From contig JAFZVH010000042.1 in NCBI GenBank assembly GCA_017617915.1, positions 1 through 45,348 on the forward strand: a DNA stretch of 45,348 bases. Reading direction: 5' to 3'. Position 1 is the stretch's first letter. Every line of letters begins with the position of its first letter. Below the pieces are notes generated by a model, which made no database searches, was not told the DNA's origin, and saw only the letters and a list, made by a program, of their open reading frames with translations. This DNA is from Alphaproteobacteria bacterium (GTDB lineage Bacteria > Pseudomonadota > Alphaproteobacteria > Rs-D84). The position numbers were made by a program, and so were the translations under genes. Below, one piece after another: positions 154 to 4,925 of the stretch.

Positions 154-756
154 ATGACAGATAAGGAAATTTTGGAATCTTTACAGAAAGTTCTCGATAA
201 AATACACAACCCAGATACAGGTGCTTTTCGTCATGCAAAAAAGTTTGCAAAAGGAATAACAACAACTCGTCTTGCAATTACAAAAGGTGTGTCTGTAAAA
301 GATGTTCGTTTTGATATATCGGGAAAAGAATTTTATGAACAAAGGCTGGGTGATTTGGCTTCTTGTACAGGTATGACAAAATTGTTTTTATATGCTGCGA
401 AAGATTCAGGACTGGACTTAAAAGCCGTTATAACAACAGAAATAGATTGTTTAAATGCTGGTAAAAGCAATATTGGTCATGTTGTGCCTGCTGTTAAAAT
501 GTCCGATGGACAATACCATGTTTTTGAACCGCGTTGTCGTAATGTGATGGGACAAGATTTTCAAAGAATGTTGAAACAACCTGTTGAAATAGGCAAACCT
601 GTTTTTCATATATTAAATGCAATCAAAGATAAACCTTATGAAGTAATAGATATTATTTCTGGTGAAGACTTAGAACAAATTAAAACAATGGATGGTATCA
701 TGAACAAAAGTCGTCGAAGAATTGCTACCCCTCAAAAAATTATGGAAAGAGATTAA
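154..756 (+). CDS. Hypothetical protein with a transglutaminase-like (Cys-His-acid) signature
   Basis: 200-aa AT-rich ORF; SCTGMTKLF...GHVVPAV...VFEP motif order resembles transglutaminase-like cysteine-protease folds. Confidence 0.6.
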   Translation: MTDKEILESLQKVLDKIHNPDTGAFRHAKKFAKGITTTRLAITKGVSVKDVRFDISGKEFYEQRLGDLASCTGMTKLFLYAAKDSGLDLKAVITTEIDCLNAGKSNIGHVVPAVKMSDGQYHVFEPRCRNVMGQDFQRMLKQPVEIGKPVFHILNAIKDKPYEVIDIISGEDLEQIKTMDGIMNKSRRRIATPQKIMERD

Positions 757-930: not shown

Positions 931-956
931 TTTGGCAGCCCCACTCGGATTTGAAC
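931..956 (-). repeat. Direct repeat of the tRNA-Glu 3' end (att-like, 26 bp, matches 1136-1161)
   Basis: tttggcagccccactcggatttgaac is identical at 931-956 and 1136-1161; includes the T-loop half, acceptor strand and CCA. Confidence 0.92.
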
Positions 957-1071
957 TCGCCCCCTCGATACACAATAATAAAAATTAAAAAAATTTCGTA
1001 AACTTCAATTTTTTAAAATTTTTCTAATTGTGTATTCTCGTATTGGTGCTGCGTGCGTTGCACTCGCACCC

Positions 1072-1167
1072 ATCCCGGTTCAAACCCGGGGGCGCAAACA
1101 AAATAAAACGACCACCATTTCGGTGGTCTTTTTATTTTGGCAGCCCCACTCGGATTTGAACCGGGAT
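1072..1167. repeat. Long imperfect inverted repeat: inverted copy of the tRNA-Glu T-arm/3' end around the terminator
   Basis: atcccggttcaaa (1072-1084) is the reverse complement of tttgaaccgggat (1155-1167); pairing continues imperfectly to caaaataaaa/gaccacc around the loop atttc. Confidence 0.85.
1099..1137 (-). terminator. Intrinsic terminator of the tRNA-Asp/tRNA-Glu transcript
   Basis: gaccacc-atttc-ggtggtc stem with A/T-rich flanks directly after CCA. Confidence 0.8.
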
Positions 1168-1386: not shown

Positions 1387-2190
1387 TTACGATTTTTTGC
1401 CGCGGCGCATCGCAAGCACTATTAACCCAACGCCGCAGAAAAACATAATGCCAGACAATAACTGGCCCATGGTCAGGCCCCAGCTGGTCAAGAAACCAAT
1501 CTGGGCATCTGGGGCGCGGAACTGTTCACAAAAAATTCTGAATATCGCGTACAGCATCGCCATAGTTCCCGCCAGTGCGCCCGCATACTTGCGCAGGTTT
1601 GTCCAGCGATACAAACAAAACATTATGACGGTCAACAATATGCCTTCGGTTGCGGCCTCGAACAATGGGCTGGGGTATCGTGGCACTTCGGAAATGCCGC
1701 GAAAAATCACACCCAACCAAGAATCTGTCGGGCGACCCATAACTTCCATATTTATAAAGTTCGCAATGCGACCAAAGAACAGCCCAATCGGCGCGACAAC
1801 CGCCAACATATCCAAGATATGCAACCCGCGCATCCAACGCCGCGCAAAACCAAATGTTGCAACTACCACACCAATCAGGCCGCCATGGAAACTCATCCCC
1901 CCATGCCACAGCATAAAAATTTCCAGTGGGTTTTCAATAAACACCGGCAGATTATAGAACAATACATACCCTAGCCGCCCCCCGATTATCACGCCAAGAA
2001 TCAGCCAAGTCAGCAAATCGTCCAATTCTTTCTTGGTCAGCTTCACCGCCGCACGTGGCGACCGCATCATATATTTTAGTGCAACATAACCAACAACAAA
2101 TGCGGCGATATACGCCAGCGCATACCACCGCACAGGAAAACCGAATACACTAAATGCAACCGGTGAAATTGGGTCAATTACAATTGCCAT
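1387..2190 (-). CDS. lgt: Prolipoprotein diacylglyceryl transferase
   Basis: RWYAL, GGRLGYVLFY, GGMSFHGG, GRIANFINME, PSPLFEA motifs; multi-TM protein. Confidence 0.96.
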   Translation of the reverse strand: MAIVIDPISPVAFSVFGFPVRWYALAYIAAFVVGYVALKYMMRSPRAAVKLTKKELDDLLTWLILGVIIGGRLGYVLFYNLPVFIENPLEIFMLWHGGMSFHGGLIGVVVATFGFARRWMRGLHILDMLAVVAPIGLFFGRIANFINMEVMGRPTDSWLGVIFRGISEVPRYPSPLFEAATEGILLTVIMFCLYRWTNLRKYAGALAGTMAMLYAIFRIFCEQFRAPDAQIGFLTSWGLTMGQLLSGIMFFCGVGLIVLAMRRGKKS

Positions 2191-2193
2191 AGG

Positions 2194-2439
2194 TTATAAG
2201 CTGTACCCTTCGCGGCGCAAAGTTTGCGTTAAATTTGAAACAATTTCTTGCAGACGCGCAACTTTTTTATCTTCGCGGTCCGCCTTTGGTTTGGCCATTT
2301 CTGTTTCTAATTTTTTCTTTTGTTCAAGATATTTCTTGATAAGCCCTTCGACAACCGTTGACCTTGCAGGTTTACGCACCAAATCTTCTTTAACCGTTTT
2401 GCGGTCTATCGGATTTTTTCTGGAACTTGCTCTTGGCAT
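2194..2439 (-). CDS. Small basic coiled-coil hypothetical protein
   Basis: 81 aa, SD AAGGAG upstream, ends 3 bp before the lgt start. Confidence 0.7.
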   Translation of the reverse strand: MPRASSRKNPIDRKTVKEDLVRKPARSTVVEGLIKKYLEQKKKLETEMAKPKADREDKKVARLQEIVSNLTQTLRREGYSL

Positions 2440-2524
2440 TATTAAATCTCCTTTTAAATTTTTATTCCTTGAAAAGATACCTTTATTATATTATATATTT
2501 TACGAACTAACAAGGAGAAAAATT

Positions 2525-3250
2525 ATGCAAACAGCACCTAAAACAGTTGCCGCGCGCGGAATACGGGCAAGAAAACTCGGCGGCTTTGATTTATATCTGC
2601 GTCGAATTTTTGGCCTGATGTTCGGTGCAGTTGCGGTAACGGCACTGACATCGTTTATCACAATTTATCTTGGCGGAATCAGATTGTTGGTATCGCCGGC
2701 GGGCATGACACCATTTTTCTATATCGTTATATTTGGCGGATTGGCGCTGTCCATTTGGGCACAGGTGCGCGCGTTTTCTATGAAACCAAATGTTGCGGCC
2801 GTATGGTTATTTGTTTATTCTGTCCTGATTGGATTGGGCATGACACCACTGATTTGGGGCGGATTGGCGGTTAATCCAGCATCTATCGTGTGGGCCTTTG
2901 TAATTGCGGCGGCAATGTTCGCATGTATGGCGGCGTTTGGGTACAAGACCGCAAAAGATTTGTCGTTTTTGGGCTTGTTCCTGATGATGGGTATGATAGG
3001 TCTGATTTTGGTCGGCGTTGTTTCGATGATATGGCCAATGGGCGGCACATTTTCAACAATAGTATGCGCAATTGGCGTGTTGGTATTCGCACTGTTCACC
3101 GCATACGATATGCAATCTCTGCGTCGTGCGTATGCCGTTATCGGCGATGAAACGCGCGCAGATCAGTTGGCAGTTTTGGGAGCATTGCACCTGTATATCT
3201 CGTTCATTGCGATGTTCCAATACTTGCTGGGGCTTTTGAACAGACGTTAA
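2525..3250 (+). CDS. yccA: Bax inhibitor-1/YccA family membrane protein (start moved to ATG 2525)
   Basis: SD AAGGAG before MQTAPK; about 7 TM segments; GYKTAKDLS, TAYDMQ, GALHLYISFIAMF motifs. Confidence 0.9.
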   Translation: MQTAPKTVAARGIRARKLGGFDLYLRRIFGLMFGAVAVTALTSFITIYLGGIRLLVSPAGMTPFFYIVIFGGLALSIWAQVRAFSMKPNVAAVWLFVYSVLIGLGMTPLIWGGLAVNPASIVWAFVIAAAMFACMAAFGYKTAKDLSFLGLFLMMGMIGLILVGVVSMIWPMGGTFSTIVCAIGVLVFALFTAYDMQSLRRAYAVIGDETRADQLAVLGALHLYISFIAMFQYLLGLLNRR

Positions 3251-3267
3251 ACAATATGGAGAAAAAA

Positions 3268-3444
3268 ATGGCATATAAAGTAGATCCAACTAAATGTATC
3301 GGCTGTCATTCTTGTATGACGGTCTGCCCTATGATGGCGATTTCTGCGGGCGCAGATGGCAAATGTGCGATTGACCCGTCCAAGTGTGTGTCTTGCGGAA
3401 CCTGTGCATCGGTTTGTCCGGTTGGTGCAATCGTTGCAGGATAA
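3268..3444 (+). CDS. 2[4Fe-4S] ferredoxin
   Basis: Two CxxCxxCxxxCP motifs; SD GGAG before MAYKVD. Confidence 0.95.
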   Translation: MAYKVDPTKCIGCHSCMTVCPMMAISAGADGKCAIDPSKCVSCGTCASVCPVGAIVAG

Positions 3445-3462
3445 AAAATTCATAAAAAATTT

Positions 3463-3487
3463 AATGGGGCTTTGCCCCATTTTTTTT
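3463..3487 (+). terminator. Intrinsic terminator
   Basis: aatggggc-ttt-gccccatt followed by a T run. Confidence 0.75.
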
Positions 3488-3560
3488 GTTAAAACGGTTG
3501 CAAAACCTGCAAGAAAATATAATACTTACAGGGACAATAAAAAACAAAAGGTGTAAAGAT

Positions 3561-4925
3561 ATGCCAGCAAAAAGTGTAAATGATATCGTTGCCTTGTGCA
3601 AAAGACGCGGATTTATATTCACAGGTTCTGAAATATACGGTGGTATGGGTGGAACATATGACTATGGCCCGTACGGTGTTGAACTGATGAAAAACATCCG
3701 GAACGCTTGGTGGAATTCAATGGTTTATTCGCGCAATGATATCGAAGGACTGGATGCATCACTGATTGGCAATCGTTTAATGTGGAAATATTCTGGACAT
3801 GAAGGCGGATTTTCAGACCCACTGGTTGAATGCAAAAAGTGTGGCGCACGTATGCGTCAAGACAAAATGCGCGACCAAACAAAGTGCGATAATTGCGGTT
3901 CAACCGATTTGATGCCGCCGCGCGAATATCAACTGATGATGGGGCTGTCTATTGGTGCGGTATCTGACGGCGAAATCAATGCATACCTGCGTCCAGAAAC
4001 TGCGACAACGACATATATCAACTTTAAAAATGTTTTGGATTCTACGCCACACAAGTTGCCTTTTGGTATCGCCCAGATTGGCAAAGCGTTTCGCAATGAA
4101 ATTTCTCCGCGCGGCTTTGTTTTCCGTATGCGCGAATTTGAACAGGCCGAAATGCAATACTTTGTGCGCCCAGGCGAAGATGAAAAATACTTTACCGCGT
4201 GGCGCGAAACGCGTATTGCGTGGTGGGTGAATGTTCTGGGAATACCTGCAAACAAATTGCGCTTTACACCGCACGAAAAACTTGCGCACTATGCCAAGGC
4301 GGCGGGCGACATCGAATACGAATTTCCTGATGGATTTGACGAGGTCGAAGGCGTTCACAATCGCCAAGACTTTGATTTGGGCTCGCATACTAAATCGCAG
4401 AACGAATTCAAAATTGCGGCACATGTTATGGAAAACACCGACAGCACAGTTAAATTGGCCTATTCTGACCCCCAGACAGGCGAAAGTTTCATCCCATACG
4501 TTATTGAAACCGCGATGGGTGTAAATCGTGCGATGATGGCACTGATGATAGAGGCATATACCGAAGAAGACCTTGGCGAAGGAAAAACACGCGTTGTTTT
4601 GAAACTGAAACCGCGTCTGGCACCGGTCAAGGCGGCGGTTATACCATTGGCGCGTAATGTTCCAGAATTGGTCGGCATCGCCGAAAACATTGAAAACGAT
4701 TTGCGCGCACTGGGCATCGGACGCATAGAATTGGAAAATTCCGGTAATATTGGCAAGAACTATCGCCGTCATGACGAAATTGGCACCCCAGTATGCATAA
4801 CGGTTGACCATCAAACACTGGAAGATAACACTGTTACACTGCGTCATCGCGATACAATGGAACAGACGCGTGTAAAGATTTCTGATATTACAAAGCGCGT
4901 AATGGCTATAATCAACGAGAAATAG
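3561..4925 (+). CDS. glyQS: Glycine--tRNA ligase, homodimeric alpha2 type
   Basis: LCKRRGF, EIYGG, YDYGP, YLRPETA, GKAFRNEISPR, REFEQAE, IGKNYRRHDEIGTP motifs. Confidence 0.96.
   Translation: MPAKSVNDIVALCKRRGFIFTGSEIYGGMGGTYDYGPYGVELMKNIRNAWWNSMVYSRNDIEGLDASLIGNRLMWKYSGHEGGFSDPLVECKKCGARMRQDKMRDQTKCDNCGSTDLMPPREYQLMMGLSIGAVSDGEINAYLRPETATTTYINFKNVLDSTPHKLPFGIAQIGKAFRNEISPRGFVFRMREFEQAEMQYFVRPGEDEKYFTAWRETRIAWWVNVLGIPANKLRFTPHEKLAHYAKAAGDIEYEFPDGFDEVEGVHNRQDFDLGSHTKSQNEFKIAAHVMENTDSTVKLAYSDPQTGESFIPYVIETAMGVNRAMMALMIEAYTEEDLGEGKTRVVLKLKPRLAPVKAAVIPLARNVPELVGIAENIENDLRALGIGRIELENSGNIGKNYRRHDEIGTPVCITVDHQTLEDNTVTLRHRDTMEQTRVKISDITKRVMAIINEK

Follow-up and report, generated by a model that had tools for sequence, protein, structure and literature searches.

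A 205-bp tRNA-tail unit behind tRNA-Glu in a small alphaproteobacterial genome: a recurrent, structured element with an RtT-like layout

A 205-bp insert lies directly behind the tRNA-Glu(UUC) gene in a 45,348-nt stretch of DNA (the window), which is the whole of contig JAFZVH010000042.1 (C17) of the alphaproteobacterial genome GCA_017617915.1 (G000; 726 kb in 58 contigs, 88% complete, with 42 tRNAs); all coordinates given here are those of this window. This insert, referred to below as the tRNA-Glu tail unit, seems to be a non-autonomous, horizontally moving and structure-dependent module that enters by recombination within the last bases of a tRNA, a reading to which we assign a probability of roughly 55%. 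Such tail modules are best read as a variant, with an unrelated core, of the kind known from the RtT repeats of Escherichia coli. A first-pass annotation, made from the letters alone, had proposed a non-autonomous element that targets tRNAs and holds a copy of its target, which fits what was found, i.e. that the unit is non-coding, that it recurs, that its arms match the tRNA and that empty sites exist.

The tRNA-Glu gene (1138-1212), which is the target and is intact (55.1 bits against the Rfam tRNA model), lies on the minus strand, as does the adjacent tRNA-Asp (1232-1308), both being identified with ARAGORN and Rfam. Going outward from tRNA-Glu, a two-way terminator is followed by an inverted arm, a GC stem-loop, an AT-rich hairpin and a 26-nt duplicate of the tRNA end, beyond which lies a second, different terminator. 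The duplicate (931-956, minus strand; direct repeat D2 in a repeat search) is identical to 1136-1161 in 26 of 26 nt and consists of the last 24 nt of tRNA-Glu plus two trailing bases, thereby holding CCA, discriminator, acceptor 3' strand, T-stem 3' strand and T-loop; it makes up the unit's distal arm and is interpreted as the original tRNA end in a displaced position. At the junction that follows (957-967) a conserved CCTCGAT motif opens the core (invariant columns C21, C22, T23 and G25 of alignment A1, in which a column number is the position in the first sequence). The AT-rich hairpin (968-1035) comprises an outer helix, ATACACAAT/ATTGTGTAT, and two A/T helices, and its arms (968-996 and 1007-1035; inverted repeat I3) are 83% complementary over 29 nt. 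A conserved unpaired linker, TCTCGTATT (1036-1044; invariant columns C97, G98, T99, A100, T101 and T102 of A1), leads to the GC stem-loop (1045-1070), with an outer helix GGTGC/GCACC and an inner helix GTGC/GCAC (helices 3 and 4).

The inverted arm (1072-1098) lies on the plus strand, opposite to the tRNA gene, and reads there as a sense copy of the T-arm of tRNA-Glu together with a degenerate acceptor end. Its best part, 1072-1088, is complementary to 1151-1167 at 16 of 17 nt (94%; I10), and a looser extension (1082-1116 versus 1122-1156, 35 nt, 74%; I2) is an imperfect palindrome centred on the terminator. The latter (1099-1139) is new, is carried by the unit and belongs to a long imperfect palindrome in which the tRNA end and the inverted arm also take part; its stem (1110-1128) is followed by T-runs on both strands and is terminator-like either way. 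The original tRNA-Glu terminator, a terminator-like hairpin at 902-926 on the minus strand, is now displaced behind the duplicate. All open frames that span the 205 bp also run into the tRNA gene, and they were taken as non-coding. The parts that the first-pass annotation had described (the 26-bp repeat, the AT hairpin, the GC motif, the inverted T-arm copy and the terminator) were all recovered, and its description of them was correct.

Tail units recur within the genome as well as outside it. When the 400 nt downstream of each tRNA were compared with the 400 nt upstream, a direct copy of at least 11 nt of the tRNA's own last 30 nt was found 95-187 nt downstream of 10 of the 42 tRNAs of G000, and an inverted copy of at least 10 nt downstream of 8 of the 42 (six of these at 44-57 nt), versus 0 of 42 for either measure in the upstream control. 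Several unrelated core families occur between the arms of these units, and at two loci (C45 and C40) units stand in tandem pairs. The core of the tRNA-Glu unit (family A) is present in four copies in G000, being found also at tRNA-Gln, at tRNA-Arg and, truncated, at tRNA-Ser, and it was detected in 16 of the 24 same-genus genomes searched, with at most 10 hits per genome, many of them at contig ends. A 20-nt motif of the core occurs at no fewer than 120 loci among contigs representing one genome per species; among the 80 matches listed, all but one carry titles of Alphaproteobacteria, proteobacterium or Candidatus Enterousia metagenome-assembled genomes (MAGs) from animal guts, the remaining one being titled Bacteroidales. 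In viral contigs the 20-mer had no match (0), and a viral origin was rejected on this ground. In total, 124 distinct modules with this core were collected from gut Alphaproteobacteria MAGs, and in 79 of them a tRNA, of one of 11 isoacceptor types, lies on the opposite strand at a distance of at most 420 nt. The search for units at other tRNAs that had been suggested earlier thus turned out positive, and with 124 distinct copies the fear that the unit might be a one-off without homologues does not hold.

The arms of the units follow the tRNA beside which they stand. They were scored, over these 79 units, by the length of the longest stretch shared exactly with the final 24 nt of the cognate tRNA, versus those of other types. 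For the inverted arm the cognate match has a median of 11 nt (non-cognate mean 5.7 nt), and for the duplicate a median of 13 nt (non-cognate 5.1 nt), the latter exceeding every non-cognate type in 68 of 79 units. As to whether the inverted arm always matches the adjacent tRNA, which the first-pass annotation had suggested testing, its cognate match exceeds that of the best non-cognate type in 56 of the 79 units, but not in the remainder. The misses are mostly array units, units with another right-hand module, and Glu units that match the T-arm outside the 24 nt scored. The usual span of the inverted arm covers the last two T-loop bases, the T-stem and the acceptor 3' strands, with NCCA omitted or garbled, and the arm is continuous with the A/T-rich flanks of the terminator. 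From reading the sequences (and from I2), tRNA end, terminator and inverted arm therefore form one long imperfect palindrome from which NCCA is bulged. In the unit of a relative (G009) the inverted arm is chimeric, combining an Arg-type T-stem segment with a Glu acceptor.

As a separate observation on the tRNA itself, the T-stem of tRNA-Glu(UUC) at 1138-1212 contains a C.A mismatch (CCCGG/CCGAG), and this mismatched version is identical at six of the compared tRNA-Glu loci, one of them being the empty G001 site. In the Glu units, the inverted arm has the version with perfect pairing, CCCGG/CCGGG.

Either strand of the unit folds into a three-way junction, of which the closing helix is formed by the duplicate and the inverted copy (z = -7.1 and -6.5, with -6.5 for the minus strand; 0 of 200 shuffles were as good). 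Covariation was assessed on the four named helices in an alignment of 36 simple units out of the 79 (i.e. those with at most 101 nt from core to tRNA). In these, 96.9% of the cells are paired, compared with 86.8% in shuffles; 12 pairs change on both sides, a number that is reached by one of 500 shuffles; and the covariation score is 0.246, versus 0.094 for shuffled alignments (0 of 500 as high) and at most 0.046 for slid controls, although the aligned sequences are related and all of these figures therefore overstate independence. The same changes nevertheless recur beside different tRNAs. Helices 1 and 2 of the AT hairpin are 96% paired, with compensatory changes, and in the GC helices 3 and 4 eight of the nine pairs are compensatory across the 36 units (e.g. 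GGTGC/GCACC, GGTCA/TGACC and CGCCA/TGGCG). The closing helix is kept too, with an exact arm-arm complement of at least 7 nt in 25 of the 36 units versus 80 of 1064 mismatched pairings. The internal helices are kept by compensatory changes, and the structure is under selection. Deriving the folding strand from wobble pairs was tried and is not decisive: over all helices there are 8 G.T versus 7 A.C cells, and the bias in helix 1 over 114 modules (37 G.T versus 5 A.C on the strand opposite the tRNA) goes back to essentially one variant.

Empty sites, which had been named earlier as something to look for, were found at 3 of the 11 tRNA-Glu loci of the genus that were compared (G001, G019 and G013), where the tRNA is followed by a terminator and then by a conserved flank that corresponds to 780-900 of the window. 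The other 8 of the 11 are occupied: by this core in G000, G012, G002, G009, G014 and G020, and by other cores in G003 and G004, while G014 holds an array of three. In G009, the terminator beyond the duplicate shares its stem-loop with the terminator next to the tRNA at the empty G001 site, which implies that duplicate and distal terminator are the original tRNA end, and that the unit, with a terminator of its own, lies between; similarly, the terminator at 902-926 of the window resembles the tRNA-proximal terminator of the empty G019 site (L086). The proximal terminator travels with the unit across genomes (e.g. in the Gln units), and the distal terminators differ.

The core in G012 is 99% identical over 136 nt, whereas the adjoining lgt segment is 73% identical, so that between species the core is much closer than housekeeping genes are. 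In G002 and G018, an AT hairpin of 98% identity is joined to other right-hand modules beside tRNA-His. Near-identical cores next to a diverged lgt, together with an AT hairpin combined with other right-hand modules, argue for recent horizontal movement and modular reshuffling. In G006 (L247, G006:C1:86500-97500; 1517-4515) a 3-kb island occupies the same tRNA-Glu end, where it is stacked onto an array of three units. It encodes a 195-aa tyrosine recombinase that consists of the catalytic domain only, as well as a DUF2779/Cas4-like protein. A terminator of its own is present, and so is a distal 22-nt fragment of the other tRNA-Glu allele, which, judging from the sequence, may mark a crossover within the first 11 nt. 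It follows from this integrase-bearing island that the tRNA-Glu end is used by true integrative elements.

That the duplication might be an assembly artefact, as the first-pass annotation had considered, has a negligible probability. In its favour, the window is a whole contig, and a second exact copy of the new terminator plus TTGGCAG stands at the contig edge, outside the unit (1-45, which equals 1099-1143 exactly; direct repeat D1), pointing to a tangled assembly graph; this copy had been overlooked before. However, in a sequencing run that may be the source sample (X1), overlapping unitigs cover 876-992 and 963-1150 with 0 differences and bridge both junctions, the one at 876-992 bridging the duplicate (931-956). 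In addition, a single 723-nt contig from another study (X3) spans 762-1301, with 34 differences, and orthologous copies of the unit are present in G012, G020 and others.

With regard to mechanism, the module would enter by recombination inside the stretch that it shares with the tRNA gene (CCA, discriminator and acceptor strand). The tRNA would stay intact and keep a terminator, so that the insert would do little harm. A long hairpin or palindrome made up of the tRNA-end copy, the terminator and the inverted arm may, along with the conserved hairpins, be the shape in which a single strand (DNA or RNA) is recognised by machinery not encoded by the module, which would make the latter non-autonomous.

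Several points weigh against such a module. The two arms of one unit (L106/L233; G041:C8:45121-45269) are perfectly complementary over 15 nt including CCA, but they match no tRNA of that genome, and the 15-mer is found at these two arms only, which means that the duplicate is not always the displaced end of a local tRNA. Homologous replacement of the tRNA locus as a whole could also account for the high identity across species, and no excised or circular form was seen in the assembled contigs. E. coli RtT, the closest analogue, is reportedly a processed RNA, which would suit a role as RNA rather than mobility as DNA. Furthermore, the only recombinases of G000 are two XerC/XerD-like proteins (PF00589) and one of the resolvase type (PF00239), homologues of the latter being situated within 1.5 kb of a tRNA at 2 of 30 loci. 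IS110 and TnpB (PF01548 and PF07282, both 0 matches) and Y1 transposases have no match in G000, of which 88% is represented. The 195-aa tyrosine recombinase of the G006 island was rejected as a general helper, being present in just 7 of 151 genomes of the genus. Mobilisation in trans, which had been proposed along with a search for co-occurring nucleases or recombinases, was accordingly not borne out: no enzyme of either kind is linked to the units. Nor did the other earlier proposal, an RNA that refolds the pre-tRNA, gain support.

Other candidate helpers were considered as well. The resolvase-type serine recombinase (205 aa; G000:C34:30203-30943; L007, L043), the sole PF00239 match in the genome, precedes a truncated GC stem and a degenerate arm beside tRNA-Ser(UGA), with 34 nt between its end and the stem. 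A GC module was found downstream in none of the 12 inspected homologue loci other than C34, upstream of the homologues in relatives, paired palindromic sites flank a promoter-like TTGAC box in the manner of invertible switches, and no duplicate of the tRNA-Ser end is present anywhere in C34. As a helper this enzyme was rejected, since its homologues are not tRNA-linked and have invertase-like upstream repeats, and since a tRNA-Ser duplicate is lacking. An additional tyrosine integrase was dismissed too: six of the 16 core-bearing (family A) genomes of the genus (G010, G012, G015, G018, G020 and G023) have just 2-3 PF00589 matches, as in G000, which has 2. The only reverse transcriptase (361 aa, sole PF00078 match) belongs by its layout to a diversity-generating retroelement (G000:C52:1-1900) with an adenine-rich AAC-type repeat and a 108-aa accessory open reading frame (ORF), and it was set aside for that reason. 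The island next to the tRNA-Glu unit of G002 encodes an adhesin, an invertase-like recombinase, a lysozyme and an ABC ATPase; an integrase is absent from it.

Of the other explanations, the one that the unit is chiefly an RNA gene of the RtT type is a serious competitor, although we regard it as rather unlikely; it would be compatible with mobility. Transcription from the tRNA promoter would read through the new terminator, the antisense arm and the copy of the tRNA end would pair into a helix that resembles acceptor and T-stem and ends in NCCA, and the enzymes of tRNA processing would set free a stable ~170-nt RNA as a mimic of the acceptor end of the adjacent tRNA. Such an RNA would agree with the layout shared with E. 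coli RtT, whose arms are paired in the Rfam consensus, with the minus-strand fold (z = -6.5) and with the covarying helices. RNA-library contigs contain copies of the AT-hairpin module, and one such contig of 599 nt joins a related unit to tRNAs, but these contigs can show neither strand, ends nor transcription, and in the RNA-library runs X15 and X17, of which contigs only were used, uncovered parts and small word shares are uninformative. The unit is, moreover, boxed in by two strong two-way terminators, no promoter conserved across the unit copies was found, and the RtT model RF00391 has no match. The G.T excess in helix 1 on the strand opposite the tRNA (37 versus 5 A.C) also speaks against a minus-strand RNA, albeit weakly as it reflects one variant. 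That same variant, which has persisted and is tolerated on the opposite strand, could instead be cited for a small RNA transcribed from there, consisting of scaffold, tRNA-matched segment and terminator, which would direct a recombinase or nuclease of the RNA-guided kind, or would sense the tRNA or regulate it as an antisense RNA. The order of scaffold, variable matched segment and terminator is indeed constant across units, and the terminator is predicted to work in the plus direction too. We nevertheless consider such an RNA very unlikely: a promoter search gave 7 matches to the consensus (3.5 expected), none of them found to be conserved across copies; the only match in the window (951-979) would start inside the hairpin and falls within a segment that most copies lack; upstream, too, there is no conserved promoter; no partner of the IS110 or TnpB type was found in G000; and the matched segment runs into the terminator palindrome instead of being a discrete spacer.

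The unit could also be an inert scar, i.e. the eroded attL and attR of a large integrated element that has mostly been deleted. Direct repeats of tRNA 3' ends are what integrative elements typically leave, and are the usual trace of integration, according to passages in two papers (PMC9897764; bioRxiv 10.1101/2020.12.28.424599), and an integrase-bearing island does occupy the same site in G006. A scar is, however, difficult to reconcile with a shared core of at least 110 nt that shows compensatory changes across 36 units and 11 tRNA types, with the uniform size of 140-205 nt, and with an inverted arm that tracks each tRNA. The shared core, the arm tracking and the covariation largely refute the scar explanation, which is left with a very small probability. 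This matters for annotation, as tRNA fragments behind tRNA genes are usually taken as scars of large islands, which tail units are not.

A more far-reaching version of the module reading, which we put forward tentatively and hold to be improbable as it stands, is that tail modules form an unnamed class of non-autonomous elements, both arms of which are rewritten to the 3' end of the tRNA that they occupy. The folded single strand would be recognised by a universal host enzyme or by a helper, and E. coli RtT would be a domesticated or stranded member. The chimeric arm of G009 and the self-complementary arms of L106 point towards a choice of target that is written in nucleic acid. If the arms were indeed a programmable address, selfish DNA would have a novel means of selecting where to land safely in very small genomes.

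Some features around the unit deserve mention in their own right. At 1-75 of the window, the terminator copy plus TTGGCAG runs into GGCCATCTGTGCAACTCACGAGC, the end of a different, low-GC and ORF-bearing insert. Similar junctions, in which a tRNA stub of 6-9 nt is joined to ..ATCTGTGCAATTC[AG]CGA.., are found after units in L110, L119, L125, L161, L166 and L168 and in an X3 contig, and such a junction is read as an ORF-carrying element that landed at the extreme 3' end of a tRNA with a very short repeat. An ORF of 200 aa (154-756, plus strand) is located in a region with a GC content of 29-37%, versus 42-54% in 1300-2300. No Pfam family matches this ORF at E <= 0.01, and it is probably cargo of the low-GC insert at the contig edge. 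The conserved flank at 780-900 contains an inverted repeat, AGTTCGTAAATT/AATTTACGAACT (825-836 and 865-876), and look-alikes of this flank are located behind tRNA-Gln (C21), tRNA-Pro (C40) and the tRNA-Glu of relatives, including empty sites. It may be a repeated element itself, or the near end of the ORF-carrying insert.

A search of the literature found no paper describing units of this sort, which is not proof of their absence from it; an RtT match listed for PMC10542128 does not occur in that article as it now stands. Islands that target tRNAs, and tycheposons, share with the tail units the direct repeats of tRNA 3' ends, the restored tRNA, the stacked arrays and the empty sites; in the passages concerned, the papers on tRNA fragments and on tycheposons deal with kb-sized, integrase-bearing elements, and these passages contain no inverted target-matched arm, the word 'inverted' appearing once in those from the tycheposon preprint (10.1101/2020.12.28.424599) and 0 times in those from PMC9897764. 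The tail unit differs from such elements in being 205 bp long and without a gene or an integrase, and in having a covarying folded core and an inverted arm that matches the target.

Folded single-strand sites are known from the attC of integrons and the attP hairpin of CTX phage, in which a bulged imperfect palindrome contains the recombined arm, its inverted copy and a variable apical part. The imperfect palindrome of the tail unit (tRNA end, terminator and inverted arm) likewise contains the candidate recombined sequence, and units are stacked in a cassette-like manner, but unlike in attC the sequence of the arm changes with the target tRNA. No integron integrase was found, the PF00589 matches in G000 being XerC/XerD-like only. 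Miniature inverted-repeat elements (MITE), REP and RPE are short, gene-less, hairpin-rich and present in many copies with inverted ends, and the tail units equally so. The ends of the latter, however, copy the neighbouring tRNA instead of being constant, and the units occur at tRNA 3' ends only and in one orientation; as no constant terminal repeats, no parent transposon and no transposase family were found, an assignment to MITEs fails. The bridge RNA of IS110 and the omega RNA of TnpB are guide RNAs of mobile elements, in which a scaffold is combined with a segment that matches the element's target. The tail unit also has a scaffold followed by a target-matched segment, but no IS110 or TnpB match was found in G000, and no promoter, and the matched segment is part of a palindrome.

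The closest likeness is with E. coli RtT, the 178-bp repeats behind tyrT and tyrV (RF00391, gene rttR), which to our knowledge are still unexplained decades after their description. Membership in this Rfam family was rejected for want of a match to its covariance model: on 1-2500 of the window only tRNAs reach the gathering score of an Rfam model, RF00391 has no match there at E <= 10, and at eight further unit loci in G000 and three in relatives it has none at E <= 1, while in a positive control four E. coli units scored 132.9-137.5 bits (gathering score 45 bits). A second core family, located behind tRNA-Lys, Met, Gly and Glu (L230 at G000:C49, L224 at C45, L084 and L090), shares GGATGAGAACC..GGTTCGAC with the RtT consensus and has no RF00391 match at E <= 1 either; the shared motif hints at a possible distant link to RtT.

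In layout, the two are nonetheless alike. Both are located directly behind a tRNA gene and in its orientation, and in both an arm antisense to T-stem and acceptor 3' strand precedes a structured core, after which the 3' end of the tRNA, CCA included, is repeated exactly. In the E. coli unit the arm is GGGGAAGGAT, reverse-complementary to a portion of the tRNA-Tyr 3' end, and the copy that follows the core is the 19-nt tRNA end. In both, the arms form a closing helix (the Rfam consensus pairs GgGaaGG with CCuuCcC), and both occur as tandem units, 1 + 3 in E. coli and two each at C45 and C40 in G000. The earlier statement that no described family could be named for the unit consequently needs correction, since E. 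coli RtT has the same order of antisense arm, core and tRNA 3' end, even though the unit is not a member of that family. The differences are that the core of the tRNA-Glu unit (AT hairpin plus GC stem) is unrelated, that its two-way terminator forms a long palindrome with the tRNA end, whereas the E. coli spacer has no obvious palindrome by eye, and that tail units stand behind many tRNA types, with presence and absence among relatives and near-identity across species. The tail units thus place an RtT-like layout in a richer setting, with about a quarter of the tRNA genes in a 0.7-Mb genome involved, several core families, more than 100 copies of one core, arms that follow the tRNA, covarying helices, empty sites and transfer between species, so that what such units need, and what moves them, becomes approachable by comparison.

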